Positions 2,975 through 39,517 of a stretch of 53,743 nucleotides of DNA are shown piece after piece. The stretch spans positions 1 to 53,743 of the forward strand of contig JBQTJJ010000096.1 in assembly GCA_052387235.1 (NCBI GenBank), in the 5' to 3' direction. The notes beneath the pieces were generated by a model. That model saw nothing but the letters and a program-made list of their open reading frames with translations. It had not been told where the DNA came from and ran no database searches. How positions within the stretch are numbered: position 1 is the stretch's first letter; each line of letters begins with the position of its first letter. The position numbers were made by a program, and so were the translations under genes. This DNA comes from Actinomycetota bacterium (GTDB lineage Bacteria; Actinomycetota; Acidimicrobiia; Acidimicrobiales; GCA-2861595).

Positions 2975-3030
2975 CCTCAACATTCTGGCCGGGGACGGCC
3001 CGGGGCCGCCAGTCCGACGATACCTGACTC

Positions 3031-3043
3031 ATCCGATCGGATT
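3031..3043. promoter_or_regulatory. candidate operator: ATCCGATCGGAT(T), a perfect 12-bp palindrome
   Basis: ATCCGATCGGAT equals its own reverse complement. It sits just upstream of a possible subI promoter (TTGTGT-N18-TACCGT). Confidence 0.45.
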
Positions 3044-3109
3044 TGTGTTGAAAGGGCGGCGGCGGCTACCGTTCCTTTGGCAACCGAATCAGTTGGAAAG
3101 GGAAGGCAC

Positions 3110-4141
3110 GTGGAGCACGCGACGAGAGGCGGGTCCGTGGCGGTGGTCCTCCTGGCCCTGGTCCTGGCCGCCTGCGGGGGTGGCGGCGGGAACGGCGACG
3201 CCGGGCCCGCCGCCGACGGCGCCGGCCTCCCGGCCGCCGAGCTCACCCTGGTGGCGTACTCCACGCCCCAGGAGGCCTACGACGAGATCATCGAAGCCTT
3301 CCGGGACACGCCGGCTGGCAGGAACATCACCTTCACGAAGTCCTACGGCGCCTCGGGCGAGCAGAGCCGGGCCGTGGCGTCGGGCCTGGCCGCCGACGTG
3401 GTGGCCTTCTCCCTGGAGCCGGACATGACCCGGCTGGTGAAGGCGGGCCTGGTGGCCGGGGACTGGGCCGCGGGCGAGCACGAGGGCATGGTCACCGACT
3501 CGCTCGCCGTGTTCGTGGTGCGCAAGGGCAACCCCAAGGGCATCGAGACCTGGGCCGACCTGGTGGAGGACGGCGTGGAGGTCATCACCCCCAACCCGTT
3601 CACGTCGGGCGGGGCCCGCTGGAACGTGATGGCCGCCTACGGCCAGGCCAGCAGGGTGGGCACGGCCCACGACGACGGCGTGGCCTACCTGCACGACCTG
3701 TTCGGCAACGTCCCGGTCCAGGACGACACGGCCCGCAAGTCCCTGCAGACCTTCACGTCCGGCAAGGGGGACGTGCTGCTCGCCTACGAGAACGAGGCCA
3801 TCTTCGCCCAGCAGAAGGGCCAGGCCATCGACTACGTGGTCCCCGACGACACCATCCTGATCGAGAACCCGGTGGCCGTCACCTCCTCCAGCAAGCACCC
3901 CGAGCAGGCCCGGGCCTTCGTCGAGTTCCTCTACGGCGCCAAGGCCCAGGGCATCTTCGCCGCCAACGGCTACCGGCCCGTGGTGGCCGGCGTGGACGGC
4001 GCCCGGGAGTTCGAACAGCCGTCCGGCGTGTTCGACATCGAGAAGCTGGGCGGGTGGGCCGAGGTGACGAGGCGCTTCTTCGACCCGGCCGCCGGCGTGA
4101 TGGCCGAGGTGGAGCGCAAGATCGGCGTGTCGGTTGGCTAG
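3110..4141 (+). CDS. subI: sulfate/thiosulfate ABC transporter substrate-binding lipoprotein
   Basis: Track ORF 2891..4141 was trimmed to the GTG at 3110, which follows GGAAAGGGAAGG. A lipobox is present (LVLAACGG). The sequence TLVAYSTPQEAY...SGEQSRAV...TPNPFTSGGARWN is typical of the Sbp/CysP family. Confidence 0.85.
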   Translation: MEHATRGGSVAVVLLALVLAACGGGGGNGDAGPAADGAGLPAAELTLVAYSTPQEAYDEIIEAFRDTPAGRNITFTKSYGASGEQSRAVASGLAADVVAFSLEPDMTRLVKAGLVAGDWAAGEHEGMVTDSLAVFVVRKGNPKGIETWADLVEDGVEVITPNPFTSGGARWNVMAAYGQASRVGTAHDDGVAYLHDLFGNVPVQDDTARKSLQTFTSGKGDVLLAYENEAIFAQQKGQAIDYVVPDDTILIENPVAVTSSSKHPEQARAFVEFLYGAKAQGIFAANGYRPVVAGVDGAREFEQPSGVFDIEKLGGWAEVTRRFFDPAAGVMAEVERKIGVSVG

Positions 4142-4982
4142 CGCGGTCCCGGTCGCGCTGGGCGGCGGTTCCCGGGCCGGAGGGAGGGGGGGCCTGGCCG
4201 GTCTGAACCGGGGGTCCCTGCTCGGCACCGGGCTGGCCACCCTGTGGCTCAGCCTGCTGGTCCTCATCCCGCTCGGGGCGGTGGTGTGGCGGGCCAGGGA
4301 GGACGGCGCCGGCCGGTTCTGGGACGCCGTCACCGCGCCCGAGGCGGCCGCCGCCATCCGCCTCACGGTGGGCGCCTCGGCCCTGGTGGCCCTGGTGAAC
4401 GTGGTGTTCGGCACCCTCATCGCCTGGGTCCTCGTGCGCGACGAGTTCCGGGGCAAGCGGGTGGTGGAGGCGCTGATCGACCTGCCCTTCGCGCTGCCCA
4501 CCATCGTGGCCGGCCTGGTGCTGCTGGCCCTCTACGGCAACGACAGCCCGGTGGGCCTGAACCTGGCCTACACCCGGGCCGGCGTGGTGGTGGCCCTCCT
4601 GTTCGTCACCCTGCCCTTCGTGGTCCGCACCGTGCAGCCCGTGCTGCTCGAGTTCGACCGGGACATGGAGGAGGCTGCCGCCTCGCTCGGCGCCGGCCGG
4701 CTCACCGTGTTCCGCCGCATCGTGCTCCCCAACCTGCTGCCCGCCATCTCGGCCGGAACCGCCCTGGCTTTCGCCCGGGCCATCAGCGAGTTCGGCTCCA
4801 CCGTGCTGATCTCCGGCAACCTGCCCTTCAAGACCCAGGTGGCGGCCGTGCACATCTTCGGCCAGATCGAGACCGACAACACCACCGGCGCGGCGGCGGT
4901 GGCCACCGTGCTCCTCGTCGTGGCCCTCGTCGTCCTGGTCGGCCTCGACCTGCTCCAGCGCTGGGCCGCCCGCCGTGCGTGA
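4134..4982 (+). CDS. cysT: sulfate ABC transporter permease CysT
   Basis: Track ORF with multiple TM segments. It carries the ABC permease EAA-like motif EEAAASLGAGRLTVFRRIVLPN. The start (TTG at 4134) is uncertain. Confidence 0.85.
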   Translation: MASAVPVALGGGSRAGGRGGLAGLNRGSLLGTGLATLWLSLLVLIPLGAVVWRAREDGAGRFWDAVTAPEAAAAIRLTVGASALVALVNVVFGTLIAWVLVRDEFRGKRVVEALIDLPFALPTIVAGLVLLALYGNDSPVGLNLAYTRAGVVVALLFVTLPFVVRTVQPVLLEFDRDMEEAAASLGAGRLTVFRRIVLPNLLPAISAGTALAFARAISEFGSTVLISGNLPFKTQVAAVHIFGQIETDNTTGAAAVATVLLVVALVVLVGLDLLQRWAARRA

Positions 4983-5781
4983 GCGGACCTCCACCAGGCT
5001 GGGCTTGCGGGTGGTGGCCCTCGCCTACCTGGCCTTCCTCCTCGTCCTGCCCGTCGGCCTGGTGGGGTGGCGGACCTTCGAGGGCGGCCTGGGCCCGGTG
5101 CTCGACGCGCTGGGCGACCCCTCCGTCCTCCACGCCTTCCGGGTCACGGCCGTCGTGGCGTTCTGGACGGTCGTGCTGAACACCGTGTTCGGGGTGGGTG
5201 TGGCCGTGCTGCTGGTCCGCCATCGCTTCCCCGGCCACCGCGTCCTGAGCGCACTGATCGACCTGCCCCTCGCCGTCTCGCCCGTGGTGGTGGGCCTGGC
5301 CCTCATCCTGGTCTACGGCCGCTACGCCCCCGTCGGCGGGTGGCTGGACGACCAGGGCATCCAGGTCGTGTTCGCCCTGCCGGCCATGGTGCTGGCCACC
5401 GTGTTCGTCTCCCTGCCGCTGGTGGTGCGGGAGGTGGCGCCCGTGCTGGAGGAGATCGGCATCGAGCAGGAGCAGGCGGCGTGGACCCTGGGCGCCGGCC
5501 GGTTCCAGACCTTCCGCCGCATCACCCTCCCCGCCATCCGCTGGGCCCTGCTCTACGGCGTGGTGCTCACCCTGGCCCGGGCCATGGGCGAGTACGGTGC
5601 CGTGGCGGTGGTGTCCGGCCGGCTGGTGGACAAGACCCAGACGGTGACACTCGTGGTGGAGGAGCGCTTCCAGAACTTCGACCAGACCACCGCCTACGCC
5701 GCCTCGGTCGCCCTCGCCGCCGTCGCCGTCGTCATCCTGGTGGTCATCAGCCTCGTCCGCCCCGAGGGGAGAGAGCGATGA
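4975..5781 (+). CDS. cysW: sulfate ABC transporter permease CysW
   Basis: Track ORF with the motif EQEQAAWTLGAGRFQTFRRITLPA. The GTG start overlaps the end of cysT by 8 nt. Confidence 0.85.
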   Translation: MRERTSTRLGLRVVALAYLAFLLVLPVGLVGWRTFEGGLGPVLDALGDPSVLHAFRVTAVVAFWTVVLNTVFGVGVAVLLVRHRFPGHRVLSALIDLPLAVSPVVVGLALILVYGRYAPVGGWLDDQGIQVVFALPAMVLATVFVSLPLVVREVAPVLEEIGIEQEQAAWTLGAGRFQTFRRITLPAIRWALLYGVVLTLARAMGEYGAVAVVSGRLVDKTQTVTLVVEERFQNFDQTTAYAASVALAAVAVVILVVISLVRPEGRER

Positions 5782-5865
5782 CGGCGCCGGATGGGGCTGG
5801 GGTCCCCATCTCGGCGAGGAGGCCGGGGTTGGGGCCCCGGCCGGGGAGAGAGCGATGAGACCCTC

Positions 5866-6828
5866 ATGAGCATCCGGGCAGCGCATGTCACCAAGCGGTT
5901 CGGCGACTTCGTGGCCCTCGACGACGTGTCGGTGGACATCCCCACCGGCTCGCTGACGGCCCTGCTGGGACCGAGCGGGGGAGGGAAGTCCACCCTGCTG
6001 CGCATCATCGCCGGCCTGGAGCACCCCGACGAGGGGTCGGTGGAGATCGCGGGCGAGGACTCCACCGAGCTGCCGCCCCAGCGCCGCAACGTGGGCTTCG
6101 TGTTCCAGCACTACGCCGCCTTCAAGCACCTCAACGTCCGTCGCAACGTGGCCTTCGGGCTCGAGATCCGCAAGCGCCCCAAGGACGAGGTGCGCCGGCG
6201 GGTGGACGAGCTGCTCGAGCTGGTGCACCTCGAGCAGTTCGCCGACCGGCTCCCGTCCCAGCTGTCGGGCGGGCAGCGCCAGCGGATGGCCCTGGCCCGG
6301 GCCCTGGCCGTGGAGCCCAGCGTCATGCTGCTGGACGAGCCCTTCGGCGCCCTCGACGCCCAGGTCCGCAAGGAGCTGCGGGACTGGCTGCGCCGCCTGC
6401 ACGACGAGGTCCACGTCACCACCGTGTTCGTCACCCACGACCAGGAGGAGGCCATGGACGTGGCCGACGAGATCGTGGTGATCAACAACGGCGTGGTGGA
6501 GCAGTCCGGCTCCCCCGACGACCTCTACGACCGGCCCGCCAACGACTTCGTGATGAGCTTCCTCGGCCCCGTGACCCGGCTGAACGGCGCCCTGGTGCGC
6601 CCGCACGACCTCGAGGTCTTCACCGCGCCCGACACCGGCACGGTGCCGGCCCGGGTGGAGCGGCTCGTGCGGCTCGGCTTCGAGGTCCGGGCCGACCTGG
6701 TGGCCGGCGGCGAGGAGCTGTGGGTGCAGCTCACGCGCGGGGAGGCCGACCGCCTCCGCCTGGTGCCGGGCACCGAGATCCACCTCCGGGCCATGGTCCC
6801 CCCATCCGTGCCGGCCCCGGCCCGCTGA
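5866..6828 (+). CDS. cysA: sulfate ABC transporter ATP-binding protein CysA
   Basis: Track ORF 5791..6828 was trimmed to the ATG at 5866 ([13 protein letters not shown]). It has Walker [10 protein letters not shown], the signature [15 protein letters not shown] and Walker B MLLDEPF. Confidence 0.9.
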
Positions 6829-6832
6829 GCCG

Positions 6833-7312
6833 GTGCGGGTCTCGGCCAGGGTCGACTACGCGGTGCGGGCGCTGGCCGAGCTGGCTGCGGCCGGCGAGGG
6901 CCCCGTGAAGGGCGACGCCATCGCCACCCGCCAGGGCGTGCCCGTCAACTTCCTGGAGAACATCCTGGCCGACCTGCGCCGGGCCGGGATCGTCGCCAGC
7001 CAGCGGGGAGCGGTGGGGGGCTACTGGCTGGCGGTGCCGGCCGGGAGCGTGACGGTGGCCGACGTCATCCGCACCGTGGAGGGTCCGCTGGCCGACGTGC
7101 GGGGCGAGGCCCTGGAGGACCTCGACTACCCGGGCCCGGCCGAGTCGCTCCGGGCCGTCTGGGTCGCCACCCGGGCCAGCCTGCGGGCCGTGCTCGAGCA
7201 GGTCACCATCGCCGACGTCGCCGCCGGCCGGCTGCCCGACGTGGTGCAGCGCCTGACCGCCACCGACGACGCCTGGGTCCGCCGCCGGGAGAGCCCGACC
7301 CCCAGGAGCTAG
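6833..7312 (+). CDS. Rrf2-family transcriptional regulator (no cysteines, CymR-like)
   Basis: MRVSARVDYAVRALAELA...FLENILADLRRAGIVASQRGAVGGYWLA is the Rrf2 winged-helix signature. The 159-aa protein contains no Cys at all. It starts 4 nt after cysA. Confidence 0.85.
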   Translation: MRVSARVDYAVRALAELAAAGEGPVKGDAIATRQGVPVNFLENILADLRRAGIVASQRGAVGGYWLAVPAGSVTVADVIRTVEGPLADVRGEALEDLDYPGPAESLRAVWVATRASLRAVLEQVTIADVAAGRLPDVVQRLTATDDAWVRRRESPTPRS

Positions 7313-7437
7313 GACCCGCTCCGGCGGGGAGGCCGGACGCCCGCGGGACGGCGCCGGATGCCGGAAACGGATCCACACCGGAGGGCCGGGCGCCACGAGC
7401 AGTTCGGGCCCGACTGAGCGGAATCTCCCCCGCGCGC

Positions 7438-7466
7438 TCAAGTTCCGGGCGCCGGCGCGCCGAAAC
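7438..7466 (+). promoter_or_regulatory. candidate sigma-28 (FliA/WhiG)-type promoter TCAAGTTC-N13-GCCGAAAC
   Basis: It resembles TAAAGTTT-N11-GCCGATAA. The same motif recurs at 39392-39419, upstream of the second riboswitch. Confidence 0.4.
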
Positions 7467-7473
7467 ACTTCCC

Positions 7474-7580
7474 AACGGAACACCCACGAAACGGCAAAGC
7501 CGGGGAAACCCGGTGACGCAAAGCCACGGACCTCACGGAGCTTCACCGCTCGCAAGGCAGCCGGGCTACCGAACGGGGGC
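7474..7580 (+). promoter_or_regulatory. c-di-GMP-I (GEMM-I) riboswitch aptamer
   Basis: The sequence reads ACGGCAAAGCC-GGG-GAAA-CCC-GGU-GACGCAAAGCCACGG...CAGCCGGGCUACCGAACG. This matches the remembered GEMM-I core (GGCAAACC, a GNRA-capped stem, GGGACGCAAAGCC, ...AGCGGGGUUACCGA of Vc2). Confidence 0.8.
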
Positions 7581-7584
7581 GCAG

Positions 7585-7628
7585 TTGCCTCCCAGTGGGC
7601 TGGATGGCGGAAACGCCTGGGGAGGCAA
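7585..7628 (+). promoter_or_regulatory. Shine-Dalgarno-sequestering hairpin (expression platform)
   Basis: TTGCCTCCC (7585-7593) is the exact reverse complement of GGGAGGCAA (7620-7628). The latter contains the RBS of the ATG at 7634. An inner GGCG-GAAA-CGCC stem-loop lies at 7606-7617. Confidence 0.6.
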
Positions 7629-7633
7629 TTTCG

Positions 7634-8485
7634 ATGGCACGTGCCCGCAAGGTCCTCGGTTCGATCGTCGTGGCCCTGCTCGCTCTCACCGTCGTCCTGG
7701 CGCAGCCCGCCTCGGCCGACGACGCCGGCGACGAGGGTGCCTTCCTCGTCAAGCTGAACGACCTGCGGGCCTCCAAGGGCCTCGGCAGCCTCGCCCCCAA
7801 CGGCGCGCTCACCTCCGTGGCCCGGACCTGGTCGGCCGGCATGGCCGCCGCCGGCTCGATCTCCCACAACCAGAACCTGGCCGCCCAGGCCCCGTCGGAG
7901 TGGGCCCGGCTGGGTGAGAACGTGGGCATGGGCATGGACGTCCAGGGCCTGCACGACGCCTTCGTGAACAGCCCCGCCCACTACAAGAACATGGTCGACG
8001 GCGCCTTCACCTCGGTCGGCATCGGCGTGGTCCGCGACGGCGGCGGCAAGATCTTCGTCACCGTCAACTTCATGACCTCCAAGGCTGCGCCGGCCCCCGC
8101 GCCGGCCCCCGCCCCCGTCGCCCAGGCCGCGCCGGCCCCCGCTCCGGCCCCCGCCCCCGCCCCCGCCCCGGCGCCGGCCCGCCCCGCCCCCGTCGCGGCC
8201 CCGGCCCCCGTCCCCGCCGCACCGGCTCCGGTGGAGCCCGTGGCCGAGCCGGCCCCCGCCGCCGCCCCCGTGGCCGCCGAGCCGGCCCCGGTGGCCCCGG
8301 CCGCCGCCCCGGTCACGTCGCCGGCCCGCCGCACCGCCATGGTGACCCCGGCCGCCTCGACCGACGGCTCCCCCCGGACGGCCCTCGCCCTGGTGGGCCT
8401 CGGCCTGGTCCTCACGATGCTGGCCTCCGGCCTGGTGATCCCCCGCCGCCGCCGGGCCCAGGCGCCCGCCCTGGCCCGCCGGTAG
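7634..8485 (+). CDS. secreted, membrane-anchored CAP/SCP (PR-1-like) domain protein with Pro/Ala-rich linker
   Basis: Track ORF 7595..8485 was trimmed to the ATG at 7634. It has a signal peptide (LLALTVVLAQPASA). CAP-like motifs are present (LNDLRASKGL...SHNQNL...GENVGMG...NSPAHYKNM). A PA-rich linker follows, then a C-terminal TM segment and RRRR. Confidence 0.75.
   Translation: MARARKVLGSIVVALLALTVVLAQPASADDAGDEGAFLVKLNDLRASKGLGSLAPNGALTSVARTWSAGMAAAGSISHNQNLAAQAPSEWARLGENVGMGMDVQGLHDAFVNSPAHYKNMVDGAFTSVGIGVVRDGGGKIFVTVNFMTSKAAPAPAPAPAPVAQAAPAPAPAPAPAPAPAPARPAPVAAPAPVPAAPAPVEPVAEPAPAAAPVAAEPAPVAPAAAPVTSPARRTAMVTPAASTDGSPRTALALVGLGLVLTMLASGLVIPRRRRAQAPALARR
8084..8322 (+). repeat. low-complexity coding repeat (Pro-Ala linker, GCC/CCC/GCG-rich)
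   Basis: It translates to [36 protein letters not shown]... and lies inside the CAP-domain gene. Confidence 0.8.
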
Positions 8486-8540
8486 CGCTCTCGGGCCCGG
8501 ACGCCCCGGCGCCCAGGAACCCCCGCTCCGGCGGGGTGAC

Positions 8541-8584
8541 GACGAAGGCAGCCACCCCACCGAGCGGGGCGGTTGCCTTCCGTC
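8541..8584. terminator. imperfect hairpin between convergent genes (probable bidirectional terminator)
   Basis: GACGAAGGCAGCCACCCC pairs with GGGGCGGTTGCCTTCCGTC across a 7-nt loop, with one bulge and two non-canonical pairs. There is no U-tract. Confidence 0.4.
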
Positions 8585-8601
8585 GCGTCCGGGCCCCTGC
8601 G

Positions 8602-9711
8602 TCAGTTGGCCTGGTCGCGCCGGACCCGCTCCACCACCCGCGGCGCCCGCCGGCCGACCCCCTCGGTGGGCGCCAGCGGGTCGGCGTTGCCGCCGCCGCC
8701 GAGGGGGGAGTCGAGGTGGAAGAGGGTGGCGTGGGCCTGCTGGTGGGCGAGGGGGGAGAAGAGGTCGGTGGCCACGAACCTGGCCCTGATGGCGGCCAGG
8801 GTGGCCGGGTCGGGGACGTGCTTCTGGTTGAAGTAGTGCTCCTGGTAGATGAACTCGTGGGCCGCCCCCTGGTCGGACAGGGCGGTGGCCATCTCCTCGG
8901 TCATGGCGCCGTTGCCGCACAGGTAATAGCGGGTGCCGCCGAGCGCATCGAGCAGGGGCGGCACCGACTCGGTGAGCCGGCCCCGCAACCCGGCCCACGC
9001 CGGCGGGGGTTGCGACAGGGAGATCCGGTAGGTGAAGTTCGGGTAGCGGCGGGCCAGGGCGTCGAGCTCGTCGGTGAGGCAGACGTCGTCCTCGAGGCGC
9101 AGGCCCCAGAACAGCTGGATGCGTCCCCCGAAGCCCTCCCCCAGCAGGTGCGCGGCCAGCGAGTGGAAGGGGCCGACGCCCACGCCGGTGGCCATGAGCA
9201 CCAGGCCCCGCTCGTCGTCGGGCGGCACCATCGACCGGCCGGTGGGGCCCCGGAAGCTGACGACCTCGCCCGGCTGGCACGAGCCGAGGTAGCGGGAGAT
9301 GGGACCGTCGGGGACGACCCGGACGAGCAGGTCGAACACGCCCTCGGTGCCGGGCGGGGACAGGATGCAGTACGGGCTGCGGGCGTAGCCCACGCCCTCG
9401 AGCACGTACTCGATGCCCACGAACTGGCCCGGCTCGTGCTCGAAGGGCCCGCCGTCGACGACGCGGAGCCCGATGCGCACCGTGCCGGTGGGGGTGACGG
9501 GCGTCACGCGCACCACCTCGGCCCGGCGCTCGTAGCGGCTCTTCCTGCTCCAGCCGCCGGCCGGCGTGACGGTGGCCGCCTCCTCGGCCGTCAGCCGTCC
9601 CGGCAGAGGGGCGGGGACGCCGCCGCCGGGCGCTCCCGGTCCGGGTCCCCGGCCCTGGCCACCGCCGCCGTCCCCGGTCCGTGCCGAGTGGCGCAAGCCC
9701 GACAACCTCAC
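8602..9711 (-). CDS. FNR-like FAD/NAD(P)-binding oxidoreductase with C-terminal extension (paralog 1)
   Basis: This is the tail of track ORF 8602..10914: RSPYCILSP...VSFRGPTGRSM...LVLMATGVGVGPF...YYLCGNGAMTEEM. I chose the GTG at 9711 as start because GGAGGAGG lies 7 nt upstream. It shows substantial similarity (by-eye alignment) to the CDS at 11464-12465. Confidence 0.75.
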   Translation of the reverse strand: MRLSGLRHSARTGDGGGGQGRGPGPGAPGGGVPAPLPGRLTAEEAATVTPAGGWSRKSRYERRAEVVRVTPVTPTGTVRIGLRVVDGGPFEHEPGQFVGIEYVLEGVGYARSPYCILSPPGTEGVFDLLVRVVPDGPISRYLGSCQPGEVVSFRGPTGRSMVPPDDERGLVLMATGVGVGPFHSLAAHLLGEGFGGRIQLFWGLRLEDDVCLTDELDALARRYPNFTYRISLSQPPPAWAGLRGRLTESVPPLLDALGGTRYYLCGNGAMTEEMATALSDQGAAHEFIYQEHYFNQKHVPDPATLAAIRARFVATDLFSPLAHQQAHATLFHLDSPLGGGGNADPLAPTEGVGRRAPRVVERVRRDQAN

Positions 9712-13022: not shown

Positions 13023-15863
13023 TCAGGCCGGTGGCACGCGGACCACCATGATCGCCATGTCGTCGTCGGGCGCGCCGTCCACGAAGTCGGTCGCGGCCTC
13101 CTCCACCCGCTCGGCCACGGCTGCGGCACCGGCGTCGCCGATGCCGGCGAGCACGGCGGCGATGCCCTCGTCGCCGAACTGGCGCCGGCCCCGGTGGCGC
13201 TCGGTGATGCCGTCGGTGAAGGCCACCAGGAGGTCGCCGGGGCCCAGGTGCACCTCCACCTCGGTGAGGGCGACGTCCTCCAGCAGGCCCAGGAGGTCGC
13301 CCGGCACGCCCACGGTCTCCACCGAGCCGTCCCGGCGCCGGACCAGCGGGCACGGGTGGCCGGCGGTGCAGACGGTGGCCCGCACCCCGTCGCCCTCCCG
13401 GTAGAGGGAGATGGCCACGACGGTGCAGAAGCGGGGCTCGAGGTGCCAGGCCGGCCCCTGGGCGGCGGCCTCGTCGGCCGAGGCCCGCAGGAGCAGGTCG
13501 TTGAGGTGGTGGAGCACGGCACCCGGCGACGGGTCGCCCAGGGCCCGCGACCGGATGGTGTGGCGGGCCAGGCCGGTGACGGCGGCCGCTTCCACGCCCT
13601 TGCCGCACACGTCGCCGACGGCCACGAACCAGCCCGACCCGGTGGCGAAGACGTCGAAGAAGTCCCCGCCCACGTCGAGGCCCTCGCCGGCGGCCACGTA
13701 GCGCCCGCCGAACTCGACGCCGTCGGCGGACGGCAGCACGGGCGGCAGCAGGCTGGCCTGCAGGGCCCGGGCCACGTGGCTGCGCTCGGTGAACAGCTGG
13801 GCGTTGGCGACGGCGCCGCCGGCCCGCTCGGCCAGGTCCTGGGCCAGGGAGAAGTCCGCCTCGGAGATCACCCGTCCCTGCTCGTTGGCCATGGCCATGG
13901 CGCCCACCACCCTCCCGCCGGCCCGCAGGGCCACCACCATGGCCGAGCCCAGGCCGAGCGTCCGCAGCAGCCGGGCGTGCTCGGCGTCGCGGGCCACGGC
14001 GTCGAGCAGCTCGGGCGCCACGACCTGGAACAGGATCGGCTCGCCCGTGGCCAGGCAGGAGCCGAGGCCGGGGTCGCCGACCTGGACGGGCCAGCGCCGG
14101 TGCAGCTCGCAGGCCAGCTCCCGCTTGGCGGGGTCGGCGTGCTCGGCCGTGACGAACACGGGGCGCCCGTCCTCGACGAGGTGGATGGAGCACCAGTCGG
14201 CCAGGCGGGGGACCACCAGCGCGGCCAGGCGGTGGAGGGTCTGGGAGACCTCGAGCGAGGCGTTGAGGAGCGCCGACGCCTCGGCCAGGAAGGCGAAGCG
14301 CTCGTGGTCGCGGCGCTCGGACTCGTGGAGCCGGGCCCGGTCCAGGGCCTGGGCCGCCTGGGTGGCGAGGGCGGTGAGGAAGGCCCGGTCGGCGGCGGGG
14401 AACTCCTGGGACTGGCGGAACCCGACGGCCACGGCGCCCAGCACCCGCCCGGGCTCCGGCTCGAGGGGGAGGATGGCGGTGGCCTTGCGCTCCGCCGCGA
14501 ACCGGCTGAACACGGGATAGCGCTCGTCGCACTCCTCGGCCGAGTGGAGGTAGACGGCCCGGCCGGTGCGGATGGACTCGCTGGCGGGCACGTCGTCCGA
14601 GAGGGCGAAGCGACCCCAGCGCCGCTCGACCTCGGACGAGTAGCCCACGGCCCGGAGGATCTCCACCGTCTCGCCGTCCGGCTGGAGGAGGCAGAACGAG
14701 CCGGTGGCGGCGCCGAGCAGCGCCAGGCCGCGGCCCAGGATCACGTCGGCCACCTGCAGCGAGTCGACGGCCCGGGACAGCCCGGCCGTGACCTCCTGGA
14801 GGCCCGCCAGCCGGGCCGCGGCCTGCTCGGCCACGGTGCGGGCCGTGCGCTCGGTGGCCAGCACCTCGTCGTCGGCCCGGCGCTGCGGAGGGCCCGCGGC
14901 CGCCGCGGGTGGCGACAGCGGGAACGGGCAGGGCCGGGGGGCCGACCCGTTGACCTGGCGCTCCACCTCGCCCGCGAACCAGCGGCGGTAGGCGCTCAGC
15001 TCGTCGGACGGCGCCAGGCTGAGGAGCGCGCCGCGGCGGCAGAAGGTGGCCACCTGCTCCAGCACGGACGTGAGGTGCCACAGGTCGGGGACGAGGTCCG
15101 GGGGGAGGCCGAGGCTGACGTCCATGAGGCGGTGGCCGGCGGCGGCGGCCCGGTGGGTGGCCTCGCGGACCGCCAGCCTGGCATCGGCGTGGCGCTCCAG
15201 CACCTCCTCGACCAGCCGGATCAGCGGGGTCGGCACGGTGTAGGCGATGTCCTGGTCGGCGAGGGTGAGCACCTGGAACTCGCGCACCAGGTCGTCGAGG
15301 TTGAGGTCGCTGGCCAGGGCGAGGCGCACCGGGACGGCCACCAGGCGGACGGGGACGATGCCGGCGCCGGTGGCCGGCGCCCGGCGCTCGTTGGCCCGGT
15401 GCTCGGTGCCGTCCGGCCCGCCGGTGGCCACCTCCATCCACACCGTCTTGCCGGCGTCGGTGGTGTCCACGCCCCAGCGGTCGGCCACGGACGAGACCAC
15501 GAGCAGGCCCCGGCCGGTCATGCTCTCCACGTCGAGGACCTCGTCGACGGACGCCGGCCGGCCCTGGCCGGCGCCGTCGGCCAGGGCCGCGTGCCAGGGC
15601 AGGCTCACCTCCCGTGGGCTCTCGTCCCGCACCTCGGCCCGGACGCCGGCGCCCCGCCGCTCGAGCACCACCTGGAGGTCGGTGCGGGCATGGAGCACGG
15701 CGTTGGCGACCAGCTCGGAGACGCCGAGGGCGACGTCGTCGGCCAGCGCCTCCAGGCCCCACGAGACGAGCACCTCCCGGACGGCGCGCCGGGCCCGGGC
15801 CGCGCTGGCCAGCTCCGGGGCCAGCCGGACCGACGTGGTGCCAGGAACTCCCCCCGGGTGCAC
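13023..15863 (-). CDS. OsaC-like multidomain regulator: N-terminal RsbW-type HATPase kinase, unknown region, two GAF domains, C-terminal PP2C/SpoIIE phosphatase
   Basis: Track ORF 13023..15980. The N-terminus ARRAVREVLVSWGL...ELVANAVLHA...GRGLLVVSSVADRWG is anti-sigma-kinase-like. The C-terminus GGDFFDV...GDVCGKGVEAA...FTDGITE...DDDMAIMVVR is PP2C-like. The start is uncertain: GTG at 15863 is preferred, with alternatives at 15953 and 15980. Confidence 0.8.
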   Translation of the reverse strand: MHPGGVPGTTSVRLAPELASAARARRAVREVLVSWGLEALADDVALGVSELVANAVLHARTDLQVVLERRGAGVRAEVRDESPREVSLPWHAALADGAGQGRPASVDEVLDVESMTGRGLLVVSSVADRWGVDTTDAGKTVWMEVATGGPDGTEHRANERRAPATGAGIVPVRLVAVPVRLALASDLNLDDLVREFQVLTLADQDIAYTVPTPLIRLVEEVLERHADARLAVREATHRAAAAGHRLMDVSLGLPPDLVPDLWHLTSVLEQVATFCRRGALLSLAPSDELSAYRRWFAGEVERQVNGSAPRPCPFPLSPPAAAAGPPQRRADDEVLATERTARTVAEQAAARLAGLQEVTAGLSRAVDSLQVADVILGRGLALLGAATGSFCLLQPDGETVEILRAVGYSSEVERRWGRFALSDDVPASESIRTGRAVYLHSAEECDERYPVFSRFAAERKATAILPLEPEPGRVLGAVAVGFRQSQEFPAADRAFLTALATQAAQALDRARLHESERRDHERFAFLAEASALLNASLEVSQTLHRLAALVVPRLADWCSIHLVEDGRPVFVTAEHADPAKRELACELHRRWPVQVGDPGLGSCLATGEPILFQVVAPELLDAVARDAEHARLLRTLGLGSAMVVALRAGGRVVGAMAMANEQGRVISEADFSLAQDLAERAGGAVANAQLFTERSHVARALQASLLPPVLPSADGVEFGGRYVAAGEGLDVGGDFFDVFATGSGWFVAVGDVCGKGVEAAAVTGLARHTIRSRALGDPSPGAVLHHLNDLLLRASADEAAAQGPAWHLEPRFCTVVAISLYREGDGVRATVCTAGHPCPLVRRRDGSVETVGVPGDLLGLLEDVALTEVEVHLGPGDLLVAFTDGITERHRGRRQFGDEGIAAVLAGIGDAGAAAVAERVEEAATDFVDGAPDDDMAIMVVRVPPA

Positions 15864-15951
15864 CCGCCAATTGTGCCGACCGCACCGGGCGCGGAGCGAG
15901 TCGGGCCGGGAAACCGGTTGCGCGCCGGCCCGGCCCGGACGACGCTGGGGC

Positions 15952-16094
15952 ATGCCCGCCGGCGCCCTCGACGTGGCCATCCGCCGGGCGCGGGTGGACG
16001 ACGTGGCGGCGGTGGTCGAGCTGTCGGCCGCCGTGGCAGCCGAGGGGCGCTGGATAGGCCGGGAGCAGGTGGACCCTGCCGAGCGCCGTAGCGC
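15952..16094 (+). pseudogene. possible remnant of a GNAT acetyltransferase N-terminus
   Basis: MPAGALDVAIRRARVDDVAAVVELSAAVAAEGRWIGREQVDPAERR looks like a GNAT N-terminus. Past 16095 the frame degenerates into S/R-rich sequence antisense to mobA. Confidence 0.25.
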
Positions 16095-16764: not shown

Positions 16765-16786
16765 AGGCATCGGGTGCTTGTTCCCG

Positions 16787-16815
16787 TTGTCGTCGGAAGT
16801 AGTGGCGGCTATCTT
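16787..16815 (+). promoter_or_regulatory. candidate housekeeping-type promoter TTGTCG-N17-TATCTT for the giant surface-protein gene
   Basis: The -10 fits the actinobacterial TANNNT pattern. It lies about 40 nt upstream of the ATG at 16855 and downstream of the palindrome. Confidence 0.35.
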
Positions 16816-16854
16816 TCGGACGACCCGGCGCCGCTCGGGTCGCCGGGAGGCCCG

Positions 16855-19800
16855 ATGGGGGACCAGGACTACCGCGGTCGGTCCTTCCCAGAAGCCGCGA
16901 TCAGGGACATGGAGGACGCCGTGGCCAGCGAGGGACGGACCGCTTCATTCGCGCCGCCCGGGAGTCGGCTCCGCGCCACCCGGACGGTCGCTGCGCTGGG
17001 CACCGCCGCCGCGGTGGTGGTGGGCGGCCTCGCCATCCCCACGGTCTGGTCGGCCGCCACCGGCCGGGGTCGGGCGCCGGCGGCGCCGGACGCCACCGCC
17101 ACGGTCGCGCGGGCCTACGCCCAGCTCCCGTTGCGGTTCGAGCCGAACCGGGGCCAGTCCGGCCAGGGCGTGCAGTTCCTGGCGCGCGGCGCCGGCTACA
17201 CCGCCTTCATCTCCGGCGCCGGGTCGGTCCTGCGCGTCGGCGGCGCCGACGTCCCCATGACGATGGTGGGCGCCGATCCCGGCGCTCCCGCCGCTACCGG
17301 CCGCCGGCTCCCGGGCGTGACCAACTACCTGAACGGCGCCGACCCGAAGGGCTGGCTCACCGGCGTCCCCGGCTTCGACCGGGTCCGGTTCGACGGCGTC
17401 TACCCCGGCATCGACCTGGTGTACCGGGGCCAGGGCCGCTCCCTGAAGTACGACTTCGTGGTCGCACCGGGCGCCGACCCCGGCCGCATCGCACTGGAGC
17501 TGGGGCCGCCGTCGACGGTGTCGATAGAGCCCGGCGGCGACCTGGTCGTCGCCACGCCCGCCGGCGACGTCCGCCACGAGAAGCCGTACGTGTACCAGGA
17601 CGTCGACGGGAAGCGCCGCACCGTGACCGGGTCCTACGTCCGGCGGGCCGACGGCCACATCGGCTTCCGCCTCGGCACCTTCGACCGGTCCCGCGCCCTG
17701 GTGATCGACCCGGTCGTCGCCTACTCCACCCTGCTCGGTGGCAGCGGGTCCGACTCGGGCCTGGCGGTGGCGGTCGACGGGGCCGGGAGCGCCTTCGTCG
17801 CCGGGCAGACGGCCGCGTCCAACTTCCCCACCGTGGGCCCGGCCCAGGGGGCGCTCTCGGGCGCCAGCGACGCCTTCGTGACCAAGCTCAACCCGGCCGG
17901 AACGGACCTCGTCTACTCCACCTTCCTGGGTGGCGGCAACGTCGAGGCGGCCAACGGCATCGCCGTCGACGCCTCGGGCAACGCCTACGTCACAGGCGAG
18001 ACCCGCTCCGACAACTTCCCCACGGTGGCGCCGATCCAGGCCGCCCGCGGCGGCGGTACCTGCGGGACGGCCCCCAACACCTTCCCGTGCCCCGACGTGT
18101 TCGTGGCCAAGCTGAACGCCACCGGGTCGGCCCTCCTCTACGGCACCTACCTTGGGGGCAGCGCGTCCGACGTCGGTCGTGCCGTCGCCGTCGACGGGTC
18201 CGGCAGCGCCTACGTCACCGGCGACACGGCATCGACCGCCTTTCCCCGGGTGGGCGCCCTCCAGAACACCAAGGGCGCCGGCACCAGCAGTGACGCCTTC
18301 GTCTCCAAGCTCAACGCCGCCGGCTCGGCCCTCACCTACTCCACCTTCCTGGGCGGGGGCCAGGCCGACGTCGGGCGCGGCATCGCCGTCGACGCCGCAG
18401 GCAACGCGCACGTCACCGGGGACGCCTCGTCCACCGACTTCCCGGTGGCCAGCGCCCTCCAGGGCACCAGCGCCGGCGGCGGGGACGCGTTCGTGACCAA
18501 GTTCAACCCGGCGGGCTCGGCCCACCTGTACTCCACGTACCTCGGCGGCGCCGGCGCCGACGCCGGCCGGGCCATCGCCCTCGACCCGTCGGGCAGCGCC
18601 TACGTGGCCGGGAGCACGGCATCGGAGAACTTCCCGGTCGCATCCGCCTTCCAGGGCGCCAAGCCCGGTGGCGACGACGGCTTCGTCACCAAGCTGGACG
18701 CAGCCGGGGCCGCCCTCGTGTACTCGACCTATCTCGGCGGTCTCGGCCCCGACTCGGCCAACGGGATCGCCGTGGACGGGTCGGGAAGCGCCCATGTGGG
18801 GGGCACCACGTCGTCGACGGACTTCCCCGTCGCGGCACCGGTGGCGGTCCGGGCCGGGAGCGGCGACGCCTTCGTGGCGCAGCTCGCGCCGGCGGGCAAC
18901 GGGCTGGTGCACGCCGCCCCGTTCGGCGGCAGCGCCAACGACTCGGGCCACGGCATCGCCGTCGACGCCGCTGGCTCGTCGTACCTCGCCGGCCAGGCCG
19001 CCCCGTTCATCGACGAGATCACCGACGACTTCCCCACCGTCAACGCGCTGCGGGCCAGCTTCGCCGGCAGCAACGACGCCTTCGTGACCAAGATCTCCCC
19101 CCTGCCCGCCGGCCTTCCCCTCGTCACCGCGCTGTCGCCGAGGAGCGGCCCCGCGGGGACCTCCGTCCTGCTGAGCGGGTCCGGCCTGTCCGGGGCCACC
19201 GCCGTCCGCTTCGGCTCCGTCGCCGCCACGTCGTTCTCGGTGCTCTCGGCCGCCCAGATCCGGGCCGTCGCGCCCGCCCAGGCCGCGGCCGCGGCCACCG
19301 TCACCGTCACCACGCCGGCGGGCACCTCGCCGCCGAACCCGGCGGCCCGCTACACCTACGGCGAGGGAACGTGGGAGCTCACGGGCGCCCAGGCCACGGC
19401 CCGCGTCGCCACTCGTTCGGTCCTGCTGGCCGACGGCAGGGTCCTCCTCGCCGGCGGCCGGGACCGCCAGAACGGCACGGCGGTCGCCTCGGCCGAGGTC
19501 TACGACCCGAAGACCGGCACGTGGGCCCTCACCGGTTCCATGACCGTGGGCCGGACGGCCCACACGGCCACCCTGCTGCGCAACGGCAAGGTGCTGGTGA
19601 CCGGGGGCGCCACGGGCAACCTGACCACCAACGCGCAGCCCCAGCTGGCCACGGCCGAGCTGTTCGACCCGGCCACGGGGACCTGGAGCGCCACCGGCAC
19701 CATGGCCACCAGCCGCTACCTCCACTCCGCCCACCTCCTCCGCGACGGCCGGGTGCTGGTGGCCGGCGGCCGGTTCTGCGCCTCCCCGCCGCCCGCCTCC

Positions 19801-21006
19801 TGCGACTTCACCCAGTTCACGGCCTCGGCCGAGATCTACGACCCCGCCACCGGCGCCTTCACCGCCACCGGCAGCATGAGCGTGCCCCGCCACACCACCG
19901 AGGCCACCATCCTCAACGACGGCCGCATCCTCATCCCGGCCGGCTTCGGTGGCCCCTCCAGCGGGCACAACTCGGCCGACGTCTTCGACCCGGCCACCAA
20001 CACCTGGACGCCCACGGGCCCGCTCAACATCGGTCGCTCCCGGCAGGGCGCGGTCACCCTCAGGGACGGGCGGGTCCTGATCGCGGGCGGGTTCAGCGGC
20101 GCCAACACCGCCGAGCTGTACGACCCGGCCACCAACAAGTGGACGCTCACCGGCAGCCCCAACTCCAGCGGCCGGAACAACTTCTTCATGGGCCTGCTGC
20201 CCAACGGCCGGGTGCTGCTCGCCGGCGGTGGGCCGGGCGGCTTCACGGCAGAGATCTACGACCCGGGGACCGGGCGGTGGACCTCGGGCGGCACCATGCA
20301 CACGTCGCGGGGCATCGCCGGCACGCCGTACAACAGCGTCCGGCCGGTGCTGCTGTCGAGCGATCCCTTCAAGGTCGAGGCCGACCCGGCCGTCTGCGGC
20401 AGCAACTGCCTCAAGATGCTGCTGGCCGGCGAGAGCGACGACCGCCGGGCCGAGCTGTACCTGCCGGCCGCCGCCGTCACCGACAAGGGCTACTGGACCG
20501 TCGCCAGCGACGGCGGCATCTTCGCCTTCGGCGGTGCCCAGTTCCACGGCTCCACCGGCGCCATCCGGCTCAACCAGCCGGTGGTGGGCATGGCGGCCAC
20601 GCCGTCGGGCAGGGGCTACTGGCTGGTGGCCAGCGACGGCGGCATCTTCGCCTTCGGCGACGCCGCCTTCCGCGGCTCCACCGGCGGCGTCCGGCTCAAC
20701 CGCCCGGTGGTCGGCATGGCCGCCACCCGCACCGGAAAGGGCTACGCCCTGGTCGCCTCGGACGGTGGCATCTTCGCCTTCGGCGACGCCCAGTTCCACG
20801 GCTCCACCGGCGCCCTCCGGCTCAACCAGCCAGTGGTGGGCATGGCCGCCACGCCCTCCCTCGGCGCCTTCAACGGGTACTGGCTGGTGGCGGCCGACGG
20901 TGGCATCTTCGCCTTCGGCGACGCCAGCTTCCACGGCTCCACCGGCGCCATCCGCCTCAACCGGCCCATGGTGGGCATGGCGGCGCTTCCCCGCGCTCCC
21001 GAGTAA
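16855..21006 (+). CDS. giant secreted/anchored surface protein: N-terminal TM anchor, SBBP beta-propeller repeats, IPT/TIG domain, Kelch-type propeller, four C-terminal 42-45-aa repeats
   Basis: Track ORF 16774..21006 was trimmed to the ATG at 16855 (GGGAGG 4 nt upstream). It has repeated ...[20 protein letters not shown]...G.AVD..GNAYVTG.T.S.NFP (SBBP-like). [19 protein letters not shown]...[10 protein letters not shown] is IPT-like. GRVLLAGG...[11 protein letters not shown] is Kelch-like. [23 protein letters not shown] occurs four times. Confidence 0.85.
20488..20990 (+). repeat. four tandem coding repeats (126, 126, 135 and about 116 nt)
   Basis: GGCTACTGG...GACGGCGGCATCTTCGCCTTCGGCG...GGCTCCACCGGCG...CTCAACC...GTGGGCATGGC recurs at 20488, 20614, 20740 and 20875. 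Confidence 0.9.
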
Positions 21007-25366: not shown

Positions 25367-26854
25367 CTACCCGGGCGGGGGAGCCACCGCGCCGTCACCG
25401 TCCACCGCTTCGGTGACCACCTCCGAGGCCGCCTCGGCCCCGGCCGCCTCGGCGCCGGCCGCGGCCTGGGCGCCGGCCGACGTGAGCGCCGTGGCCTCGT
25501 CCGCCGGAGCGGGGCCGGTGGGCGGGCTGCTCGGGAGCTGGCATCCGAGCTGGACGCCGAAGACACGGAAGCTGGGGCAGGTGGCGAGGCCGGCGGTGAG
25601 GTCGGCCGTCACCGACACGGTCGCCATGTCGACGTTGACGTCTCCCCGGGCCAGGCCCTCCAGCTCGGCCGGGTCGGGCGGCTCCAGCTCGGGAAGGGCG
25701 TCGGGCAGGGCGGTCACGGCGTCGGCGATGCCGGTGGCGGCCCTGGCGCCCTCGGCCACCAGTGCCGCCGCCAGGTCGACCGGCGCCCCGTCGGGCCCGG
25801 CCGAGGCCGCGGCGCTGAAGGTGGCGTGGGATCCCGGGGGAGCGGCGGAACCGCGACCGTTGAGGTTGACGGCGCCCACGCCCACGAAGCCCGCCACCAG
25901 CAGGGCCACCGATGCCACCGAGGTGACGAAGGGGGTGGGCAGGACGACCGCAGCCCCGATGCCGACCCCGATGGGCGCGGCCGCGCCCGTGGCCGCGGCG
26001 GCGCCCGAGGTGGCGGTGGTGGTGAGGCCGGTTGAGGTGGCGCCGGCCGAGGCCGAGGCGGTGGTGGAGAGCTGCCACTTCCCGACGACCAGAGCGGCCA
26101 GCCCGGCCGGCAGCGGCAGCACGGCCCGGCGAAGACCGGGGGCCACGTCGTCCAGCTCGGCCAGCCGGGACCGGCAGGGATCGCAGCCGGCGAGATGCTG
26201 GTCGACCTTGGAGATGTCGCGCGGGGACAGGGCCCCGGCGGCGTAGGCACCGAGCCGGTTCACCGTCTCCCGGCAGACCGCCCCCACCTCGCTCTGGCGC
26301 AGGTGGGCCTGGAGGTACCGCTGTCGCAGCCCCGCTCGGGCCCGCACCGCCAGCTGGGCCACGCCGTTGGCCGACACCCCGAGCAGGCCGGCCACCTCGC
26401 GTGGGGGGATCCCCTCCACCTCGGTGAGCCACAGGACGGACCGCCAGCGCTCGGGCAGGCTCCGGAACGCGCGGGCCACCAGCAGGGCGTCCGTGTCGGC
26501 CACCATCAGCTCGGACGGCTCGTTGCCCAGCACCGACCAGTCGTACTGGTCCCGGGGGTCGGTGGGCCGCACCCGGCCGCCCCGCCGCAGCGCGTCGATG
26601 GCGGCGTTGCGCACCGCTGCCAGCAGGTAGGGGAGGAAGTAGTCGGCGGCGTGGAGCCGGTCGGGGAGGGCCTGGAACACCCGGGTGAACGCGTCGCTGA
26701 CGGCGTCCGCGGCGTCGTCGGGATTGGCGGTGACGGCCAGGGCCATGCGCCAGGCCGCCTCGGCGTGGCGGCGGTACAGGGCCTCGAACGCCTCGAGGTC
26801 GCCGGCGCCGGCGCGGCCCGCGAGATCGGCGTCAGTCGCCTCGTCCTGCACCAT
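25367..26854 (-). CDS. ECF sigma factor fused to zf-HC2 (ZAS) anti-sigma domain, TM segment and Ala/Gly/Thr-rich extracytoplasmic tail
   Basis: Track ORF 25367..26875; I prefer the ATG at 26854 (GAGGG 6 nt upstream). Sigma region 2 is AFEALYRRHAEAAWRMA...DAFTRVF. Region 4 is ERWRSVLWLTEVEGIPPREVAGLLGVSANGVAQLAVRAR. It is followed by C-x24-H-x3-C-x2-C (CRETV...DQHLAGCDPC) and a hydrophobic segment. Confidence 0.8.
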   Translation of the reverse strand: MVQDEATDADLAGRAGAGDLEAFEALYRRHAEAAWRMALAVTANPDDAADAVSDAFTRVFQALPDRLHAADYFLPYLLAAVRNAAIDALRRGGRVRPTDPRDQYDWSVLGNEPSELMVADTDALLVARAFRSLPERWRSVLWLTEVEGIPPREVAGLLGVSANGVAQLAVRARAGLRQRYLQAHLRQSEVGAVCRETVNRLGAYAAGALSPRDISKVDQHLAGCDPCRSRLAELDDVAPGLRRAVLPLPAGLAALVVGKWQLSTTASASAGATSTGLTTTATSGAAAATGAAAPIGVGIGAAVVLPTPFVTSVASVALLVAGFVGVGAVNLNGRGSAAPPGSHATFSAAASAGPDGAPVDLAAALVAEGARAATGIADAVTALPDALPELEPPDPAELEGLARGDVNVDMATVSVTADLTAGLATCPSFRVFGVQLGCQLPSSPPTGPAPADEATALTSAGAQAAAGAEAAGAEAASEVVTEAVDGDGAVAPPPG

Positions 26855-27040
26855 CGCCTGCCCTCGATGCCGCATTCTGCACGTCGCTCCGGTGGGCCCG
26901 ATCCCTCACCCTTTGTGGTGTTCTTGCCAGCGTACCGGGGCCCGACCGAAAAGGCACCACCCAGGGAGACATTTCTCCCAGCGCCTGGGGCGCGCCGGCA
27001 GGGATCGTCTGCCCGGCGCGGGCAGGTCCCAAACCCCTTG

Positions 27041-39391: not shown

Positions 39392-39419
39392 TCAAGTTCC
39401 GGCGCGGCGGTGCCGATCA
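39392..39419 (+). promoter_or_regulatory. candidate sigma-28 (FliA/WhiG)-type promoter TCAAGTTC-N12-GCCGATCA
   Basis: The same motif occurs at 7438-7466. It sits about 8 nt upstream of the start of the second GEMM-I aptamer. Confidence 0.4.
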
Positions 39420-39426
39420 GACGGGG

Positions 39427-39503
39427 TCAGCGAAAACGGCAAACCCGTCGCAAGGCGGGGACGCAAAGCCACGGGACCCACGCGGTCAGCCGGGCTACCG
39501 AAC
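39427..39503 (+). promoter_or_regulatory. c-di-GMP-I (GEMM-I) riboswitch aptamer
   Basis: The sequence reads ACGGCAAACC-CGUC-GCAA-GGCG-GGGACGCAAAGCCACGGGACCCACGCGGUCAGCCGGGCUACCGAACG. It has a GNRA-capped P1b stem, an exact GACGCAAAGCC core and an AGCCGGGCUACCGA 3' element. It ends directly at the SD GAGGAG (39504-39509). Confidence 0.85.
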
Positions 39504-39517
39504 GAGGAGCAACCACG

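Follow-up and report, generated by a model that had tools for sequence, protein, structure and literature searches.

The window analyzed here is a 53,743-nucleotide (nt) stretch of actinobacterial DNA (assembly GCA_052387235.1, contig JBQTJJ010000096.1). On its forward strand it carries a gene for a membrane-anchored CAP-domain protein, preceded on the same strand by a class-I cyclic di-GMP (c-di-GMP-I, or GEMM-I) riboswitch aptamer, whose 3' end lies 60 nt upstream of the ATG; the interval is occupied by a conserved platform in which the Shine-Dalgarno (SD) strand faces a complementary anti-SD strand. We propose, as the probable reading of this arrangement, that the leader acts as a kinetically controlled translational OFF switch, in which bound c-di-GMP would repress translation of the surface-tethered CAP protein. 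The window has a G+C content of 74.4%, its CysS is 78–79% identical to proteins of Acidimicrobiales metagenome-assembled genomes (MAGs), and the host is an uncultured member of the Acidimicrobiales. Few members of the Acidimicrobiia have been cultured.

The encoded protein matches PF00188 with 63.4 bits (cut-off 21.1) over residues 41–146, covering profile positions 4–117 of 117. Hydropathy places a signal-like hydrophobic segment at its N-terminus, while the CAP domain is followed by a proline/alanine-rich linker (amino acids (aa) 150–245, 73% P+A), a C-terminal hydrophobic anchor (aa 249–270) and an RRRR tail. The original prediction for this locus, made from the sequence before any database search, had described a membrane-anchored CAP-domain protein, and the profile match and the two hydrophobic segments bear this out. 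No solved structure for the CAP domain was detected by a PDB sequence search, and we know of no established function for bacterial CAP/YkwD-like proteins. The gene is monocistronic, the next downstream open reading frame (ORF) being convergent.

When the whole window was compared with Rfam 15 at gathering thresholds, RF01051 (c-di-GMP-I) matched 7483–7573 (+), spanning the full model (positions 1–87 of 87) with 69.1 bits (gathering threshold 35) and an E-value of 1.6e-11. A GEMM-I aptamer had been predicted here, with the RF01051 score named as the check; with a score about twice the gathering threshold and helices that covary in 46 relatives, the assignment holds, and the sequence strings quoted in its favor all occur where they had been placed, although the aptamer itself starts at 7483 rather than at 7438. 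When the 46 relatives are aligned, 91.8% of the cells of the aptamer helices are paired and 9 pairs have changed on both sides, values that none of 500 shuffles reached, while slid controls were 25–52% paired. G7493, A7520 and C7569 fall in the columns of the model's conserved G, A and C; we take them to be the equivalents of the ligand-contacting G20, A47 and C92 of Vc2, going by the Vc2 crystal structures, the naming of RF03167 and the model alignment. As judged from its sequence and the model match, 7483–7573 is a genuine class-I c-di-GMP riboswitch aptamer; it is a further example of an established class, and the sensor itself is ordinary. The folding stability of the whole leader is likewise ordinary relative to shuffled sequence (z = 0.17), so the case is built on the model match and comparative data rather than on folding energy.

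The association of this aptamer with the CAP gene is conserved. Homologues of the CAP protein number 250 at E≤1e-10, those with names belonging to Acidimicrobiales, Acidimicrobiia or Actinomycetota MAGs, with a best identity of 71%. Thirteen homologue loci, encoding proteins 47–71% identical to that of the window, were fetched through the protein database and contig look-ups, and in 12 of them the CAP gene is immediately preceded by an RF01051 match above gathering; only a Microthrixaceae locus, whose intergenic region measures 88 bp, departs from this pattern. Because the flanking genes differ between loci, the riboswitch–CAP unit is conserved alone and not within a syntenic block. Searching metagenome contigs for the DNA pattern CGAAACGGCAANNNNGGGGAAACCC yielded 78 further loci (individual loci are given L numbers below). 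All sampled metagenome leaders (20/20) scored above the RF01051 gathering threshold, and a CAP ORF lies downstream of 50 of the 67 distinct leaders that have enough downstream DNA. Aptamers of this type are clearly abundant in Acidimicrobiia-like metagenome contigs, and every one of the CAP loci and leaders counted here derives from contigs of that kind. No description of c-di-GMP riboswitches in Streptomyces/Actinomycetota, or of such riboswitches linked to CAP/YkwD/SCP genes, was found in the searchable literature.

A single plan is common to 46 distinct ‘long’ leaders. Their 5' part comprises a promoter-like motif, a spacer of about 20–25 nt, CCCACG, the aptamer ending in CUACCGAA, and YGGGGGC; their 3' part comprises a short loop, a C/U-rich anti-SD, (A/C)GUGG(G), a variable hairpin, the SD, a spacer of 5–13 nt and the start codon. 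In these leaders the CCCA located 5' of the aptamer pairs with the (U)GGG located 3' of it, which lengthens P1 (95% paired, both sides invariant); in the window, the P1 5' strand pairs with CG (7570–7571) and GGG (7575–7577). Matched changes in this extension occur in leaders outside the 46, as UCCA/UGGA (L035/L064) and AUCA/UGA (L055/L073), and a further one, CCCG/CGGG, in L042, L072 and L083; these changes show that the G-run forms the outer part of the P1 3' strand. Of the 46 long leaders, 44 contain GUGG, as do 17 of the 19 platform clusters (defined at 75% platform identity), and GUGG co-occurs with the 5' flank CCA-CG (counts 49, 5; 3, 13; p = 8e-8, the sequences being related), whereas the hairpin that follows varies between lineages and is conserved in neither sequence nor length.

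Two other roles were considered for GUGG. A GTG start codon at 7595 would be in frame in the window, but indels between GUGG and ATG break the frame in several lineages (for example, L076 and L012), and GUGG is therefore not a conserved start codon. Pairing of GUGG with the CCAC in P1b (GCCACGG) found no support, since GCUACGG stands in half of the relatives alongside an unchanged GUGG, and the sole GUAGG variant (L091) has GCCACGG.

The 3' part of the platform is suited to hiding the SD. Within it, TTGCCTCCC (7585–7593) is a perfect 9-nt complement of GGGAGGCAA (7620–7628), and the full anti-SD:SD helix of the window comprises 11 bp (7583–7593 with 7620–7630). With P1 enforced in RNAfold, the anti-SD:SD hairpin forms in every leader among those listed, and the probability that 7620–7628 is unpaired is at most 0.08, versus 0.18–0.97 in the alternative fold described below. 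As MAFFT misaligned the SD region across lineages, duplex-energy permutation tests were used in place of column-wise pair counts: anti-SD strands pair with their own SD strand at −15.0 kcal/mol versus −11.8 kcal/mol with foreign ones (0 of 5000 permutations), and the corresponding values for 17 platform-cluster representatives are −13.96 and −11.12 kcal/mol (0 of 20000 permutations). The sequences flanking the SD core vary yet stay complementary, as in the window (GUUGCC/GGCAAU), L017 (CUCAGCC/GGCUGAG), L010 (AGCGCC/GGCGCU) and L060 (CUUUCGC/GCGAAG), and such complementarity beyond the core is not required for ribosome binding. On this sequence evidence the anti-SD:SD pairing is specific and covaries between lineages, and the hairpin that forms with P1 enforced, together with the preference for the own strand, upholds the SD-sequestering platform that had been postulated.

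The same anti-SD, taken together with the GUGG strand, complements GGGGGC as well as CCCAC(G), the two strands of P1. Across the alignment of the 46 leaders, the helix between the G-run and the C/U-run is 97.4% paired, and the core CCAC:GUGG pairs are present in 44–46 of the sequences. For transcripts cut immediately after GUGG, the unconstrained minimum free energy (MFE) structure combines CCCAC:GUGGG with G-run:anti-SD pairing in 43 of 44 leaders; this nascent alternative fold beats the best P1-enforced fold by a mean of 10.4 kcal/mol (−51.8 vs. −42.2 in the window). RNAfold also gives the same fold unprompted in many full-length leaders when the SD is forced to be single-stranded. The CCCAC:GUGGG pairing is thus a prediction drawn from conservation, co-occurrence and energy. 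That the G-run could compete for the anti-SD had been anticipated, and the near-invariance of the run, its pairability with the C/U-run (97%) and its pairing in 43 of the 44 predicted nascent folds all support this. The original prediction was right about the anti-SD:SD pairing and the G-run, but overlooked GUGG, the role of the G-run as the P1 3' strand, the promoter, the second aptamer of the window and the sign of regulation.

We envisage the following mechanism. Without ligand, the nascent GCCUCC (7587–7592) and GUGGG (7595–7599) would pair with GGGGGC (7575–7580) and CCCAC (7483–7487), respectively, an anti-P1 pairing that would both ruin the binding pocket and occupy the anti-SD, so that the SD would emerge free and ribosomes could load. 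With ligand, c-di-GMP bound to the newly completed aptamer would lock P1, and the anti-P1 strand would stay single-stranded until the SD strand is made, whereupon the 11-bp anti-SD:SD hairpin would cover the ribosome-binding site. The ON state would accordingly be a co-transcriptional trap that is captured by ribosome loading.

Repression is the most likely sign of c-di-GMP dependence, as far as sequence and fold predictions indicate. Ligand-stabilized P1 takes up the G-run, the only conserved competitor of the anti-SD, which leaves the anti-SD to close over the SD. The short leaders found before orthologous CAP genes are built differently, with the SD in the P1 3' strand itself (UCCA...UGGAGG-N6-AUG in L035/L064, ACCA...UGGGAGG in L087), so that a ligand-stabilized P1 could only hide the SD; this arrangement was read directly from the sequence, MFE folds having recovered the aptamer of the short leaders poorly. 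A pairing scheme in which formation of P1 frees the SD was looked for in the leaders, and none was found.

Several observations weigh against the OFF switch as proposed. The MFE structure of the full-length leader is the SD-sequestered one even without ligand (in the window, −71.7 kcal/mol, where the alternative fold reaches −68.1 and the P1-enforced one −67.6), and this fold is favored by 1–13 kcal/mol in the relatives among those listed. A purely thermodynamic two-state switch is consequently insufficient, since the SD-sequestered fold is minimal with or without P1 and such a switch would never turn ON; the decision would probably be made co-transcriptionally, and the model as it stands depends on kinetic trapping. 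The 46 leaders show hardly any variation in CCCAC, the G-run and GUGG, so that here the P1 extension and the CCCAC:GUGGG pairing are supported by conservation, co-occurrence and predicted energies in place of compensatory changes. GUGG is missing from the long leaders L022 and L054. Members of the aptamer class dock the GNRA loop of P1a in a P1b receptor, and the receptor region of the window (CCUCAC...GCAAGG) departs from the consensus, differing from the CCUAA...UAUGG of most relatives and carrying mismatch marks in the model alignment. Finally, the counts lack independence, since the leaders were gathered by means of a sequence pattern and are phylogenetically related.

The equilibrium energies lend themselves to other explanations as well. 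Since the ligand-free equilibrium fold already hides the SD, a ‘default OFF’ leader that c-di-GMP binding opens to expose the SD is conceivable, and class-I c-di-GMP riboswitches of both signs are known (e.g., Vc1); we nevertheless regard an ON switch as quite improbable, given that P1 consumes the sole conserved competitor of the anti-SD, that the SD is no more than 8% unpaired with P1 enforced, and that the SD lies within P1 in the short leaders of orthologous genes. The same energies, with the SD-sequestered hairpin as the MFE structure in both states, would fit an aptamer that binds c-di-GMP next to a constitutive anti-SD:SD damper, ligand control being exerted mainly through Rho-dependent termination or mRNA decay. 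No intrinsic terminator was found in 7000–9000, nor does a U-tract follow the anti-SD:SD hairpin, which rules out attenuation at a terminator and means that any transcriptional effect would need Rho. We consider such a damper unlikely, since it leaves unexplained both the fusion of SD and P1 in short leaders and the conservation, in 17 of 19 divergent platform types, of a G-run/anti-SD/GUGG strand complementary to both strands of P1.

Two further readings concern the identity of the ligand and the functionality of the element. GEMM-I variants with altered specificity exist, and the second aptamer in the window scored best against the variant family RF03167, which might suggest that 3'3'-cyclic GMP-AMP (3'3'-cGAMP) or another compound is sensed, as in variant classes. 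This is very unlikely for the CAP leader, in which the diagnostic positions G7493, A7520 and C7569 are as in c-di-GMP binders and RF01051 itself is the best family; even the second aptamer carries A where RF03167 has its distinguishing G (GACGCAAAGCC). To the idea of a decaying relic without a regulatory role, for which no feature of the sequence spoke, we attach hardly any weight, in view of the full-length, high-scoring model match and the conservation of aptamer, platform and promoter motif across lineages whose CAP proteins are just 47–71% identical.

The promoter motif adds a possible second layer to the OFF switch. Upstream of the aptamer, the window sequence fits the actinobacterial sigma-28-family consensus (−35 T(A/C)AA or CTCA, spacer of 16–17 nt, −10 GCCGA), and no sigma-70-type promoter was found in 7000–9000. 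From this motif, transcription probably starts near 7473, about 10 nt upstream of P1, giving a 5' untranslated region (UTR) of about 160 nt; the leader of about 320 bp in the original prediction corresponds to the intergenic distance (7313–7633) rather than to this predicted 5' UTR. The motif (CTCA or T[AC]AA)-N16-17-NCCGA occurs within the 100 nt upstream in 51 of 68 leaders, compared with 34 of 7557 (0.45%) background 100-nt windows of the same contigs, and its CCGA usually ends 19–26 nt before the CGAAAC of the aptamer. In its GCCGA form the motif occurs three times on both strands of the whole window: two copies (7438–7466 and 39392–39419) each lie just upstream of an aptamer and the third is inside a coding region. 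Published consensus sequences are T(A/C)AA-N16-GCCGATAA for WhiG2 and CTCA-N16-17-GCCGAACT for WhiG1/FliA (PMC12871210), and the anti-sigma factor RsiG, when loaded with c-di-GMP, keeps WhiG inactive, with RsiG found in three of four Acidimicrobiales species (PMC8325347); riboswitches and CAP genes are not mentioned in either report. A search of the literature found no description of a sigma-28-type promoter before such riboswitches, which does not prove novelty.

As WhiG is held inactive by RsiG with c-di-GMP, and the motif precedes both aptamers of the window and three quarters of the relatives, a two-layer use of the messenger suggests itself. We advance tentatively, as a possibility suggested by these sequences, that c-di-GMP gates one gene twice in Acidimicrobiia: RsiG armed by c-di-GMP would sequester a WhiG-type sigma factor and thereby shut the promoter, and the riboswitch would shut translation through the bipartite anti-P1/anti-SD strand, such that surface CAP-domain proteins and a few secreted hydrolase-like proteins encoded behind this module would be made only at low c-di-GMP. 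Within the 53.7-kb window, no whiG, rsiG or GGDEF/EAL genes were found, nor any sigma-28-family gene.

Several known systems share features with this leader. Vc2 (the Vibrio cholerae tfoY leader and structural reference of RF01051) belongs to the same class and shares the three-helix junction, the GAAA tetraloop on P1a, the G/A/C contacts and the location in a 5' UTR; it reportedly lowers translation of the downstream gene. What differs from Vc2 is the relay platform (G-run as SD mimic, anti-SD plus GUGG, SD), the Acidimicrobiales host and the CAP-domain target. Two leaders of Clostridioides difficile, Cd1 (flgB operon) and that of zmpI/PPEP-1, are OFF switches through which low c-di-GMP is coupled to the sigma-28 (SigD) motility programme and to a secreted protein. 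The present leader resembles these in combining a sigma-28-type promoter motif with what we infer to be an OFF switch on a secreted or tethered protein; however, the C. difficile switches terminate transcription, whereas here there is no terminator and control would be exerted at the ribosome-binding site. The order of the parts differs as well: the C. difficile riboswitch precedes the gene for sigma-28, while in the present leader it is the riboswitch that is preceded by a sigma-28-type promoter motif. The logic of the platform is shared with anti-SD/anti-anti-SD OFF platforms of the thiM type: in the Escherichia coli thiM thiamine pyrophosphate riboswitch, the anti-SD of the ligand-free RNA is sequestered by a strand of the closing helix, and ligand binding releases it to cover the SD. 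Here the competitor strand is bipartite and would pair with both strands of P1, and the energies point to kinetic rather than equilibrium control. Against this familiar overall logic, the single competitor strand predicted to pair with both P1 strands is the distinguishing feature of the platform. The motif before both aptamers of the window also fits the T(A/C)AA-N16-GCCGATAA consensus of the RsiG-(c-di-GMP)-WhiG switch, which, unlike the RNA switch described here, is protein-based and acts on transcription initiation.

The aptamer would hold no surprise for a specialist; the conserved module, however, provides a testable handle on CAP function and on layered c-di-GMP control. With a whole Acidimicrobiia clade of CAP proteins apparently wired to c-di-GMP, low c-di-GMP becomes the condition under which to seek a phenotype, and the two-layer switch, if true, would supply the first physiological context for bacterial CAP proteins, namely a low-c-di-GMP, dispersal or motility-type state. 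The platform would also offer a clean, conserved case in which one competitor strand engages P1 on both sides, with kinetic control predicted, and the long relay, together with its natural short versions that carry the SD in P1, forms a comparative series for the evolution of expression platforms. The coordinates of the individual features are collected in Table 1.

Table 1. Sequence features of the CAP-gene leader, with positions in the window.
Feature	Position	Strand	Remark
Sigma-28/WhiG-type promoter-like motif	7438–7466	+	TCAA (7438–7441), 17-nt spacer, GCCGAAAC (7459–7466)
c-di-GMP-I (GEMM-I) aptamer	7483–7573	+	P1a 7494–7519, P1b 7522–7567
P1 5' strand CCCACG	7483–7488	+	invariant in long leaders; also partner of GUGGG in the predicted alternative fold
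GGCAAAGCC	7493–7501	+	GEMM-I signature string
CCGGG-GAAA-CCCGG hairpin	7500–7513	+	
GAAA tetraloop on P1a	7505–7508	+	invariant in long leaders
GGUGACGCAAAGCC	7512–7525	+	signature string
CAGCCGGGCUACCGAACG	7558–7575	+	signature string
P1 3' strand and G-run, CG-AAC-GGGGGC	7570–7580	+	proposed anti-anti-SD (SD mimic)
GGGGG run	7575–7579	+	
Anti-SD strand AGUUGCCUCCC	7583–7593	+	11-bp helix with 7620–7630 in the MFE structure
GUGGG	7595–7599	+	complementary to CCCAC (7483–7487); second half of the anti-P1 strand
Inner hairpin GGCG-GAAA-CGCC	7606–7617	+	in the loop of the anti-SD:SD helix
SD strand GGGAGGCAAUU	7620–7630	+	core GGGAGG 8 nt before the ATG
CAP-protein gene, 283 aa	7634–8485	+	ATG at 7634; monocistronic

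The second aptamer of the c-di-GMP-I clan lies at 39429–39503 (+), its best family being RF03167 (the GGC variant; 70.4 bits against a threshold of 59). Its diagnostic base is A, as in RF01051, and the RF03167 assignment probably reflects score competition. It is preceded by TCAA-N16-GCCGATCA at 39392–39419 and followed directly by GAGGAG (39505–39510) and, at 39518, by the ATG of a 56-aa ORF that is GC-rich at third positions and matches no Pfam family, beyond which the next gene is convergent (region 39392–39688). This leader contains neither an anti-SD hairpin nor GUGG.

Among the relatives, the leaders that precede genes other than CAP serve ORFs for secreted glycoside-hydrolase-like proteins, PAS-GGDEF-EAL proteins, a 667-aa secreted protein and small Cys-rich proteins, and a few clearly unrelated leaders carry intrinsic terminators. 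The same aptamer type lies before non-CAP genes in L026, L039, L051, L060 and L088; in L042, L052 and L072; and in L020, the products, judged by eye from the translations, being secreted and glycoside-hydrolase-like, PAS-GGDEF-EAL proteins (c-di-GMP turnover under riboswitch control) and the 667-aa secreted protein. Several of the non-CAP leaders possess the full G-run/anti-SD/GUGG platform. In L021, L067 and L089, the aptamer precedes ORFs of about 60 aa that are rich in Cys pairs (MTCVHCDS..., VRCPHCDRR...), with the SD directly after the aptamer, and these small ORFs represent unnamed, zinc-ribbon-like targets of c-di-GMP riboswitches.

Other variations concern the platform, the aptamer and the neighborhood. 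In the largest platform cluster (which includes L012, L019, L023, L076 and L082), the G-run can also pair with a conserved UUCCC just before the AUG, the platform from the G-run to the start codon forms one long hairpin in the MFE structure, and GUGG is paired within an inner CUCGUG/CGCGAG hairpin in the SD-sequestered state. L085 has an aptamer-like sequence with an insertion of about 50 nt, containing two hairpins, between P1a and the GCAAAGCC segment. L003 contains three tandem CAP-domain genes (3001–6558), only the first of which has an RF01051 match at gathering. The related loci L004 and L010 encode a large PAS-GGDEF-EAL protein on the opposite strand, about 2.6 kb or two genes downstream of the riboswitch–CAP unit, and in L002 (230–2734) the DnaB helicase gene upstream of the riboswitch contains an intein that includes a LAGLIDADG endonuclease domain.

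In the window itself, a sulfate ABC transporter and an Rrf2-family regulator are encoded upstream of the CAP gene on the same strand. The only sigma factor present is a 502-aa extracytoplasmic function (ECF) sigma fused to a zf-HC2 anti-sigma domain (25367–26875, −). Other large genes encode a 985-aa protein with HATPase_c_2, GAF and SpoIIE phosphatase domains (13023–15980, −) and a 1410-aa protein with DUF7948, SBBP, TIG and Kelch domains (16774–21006, +).

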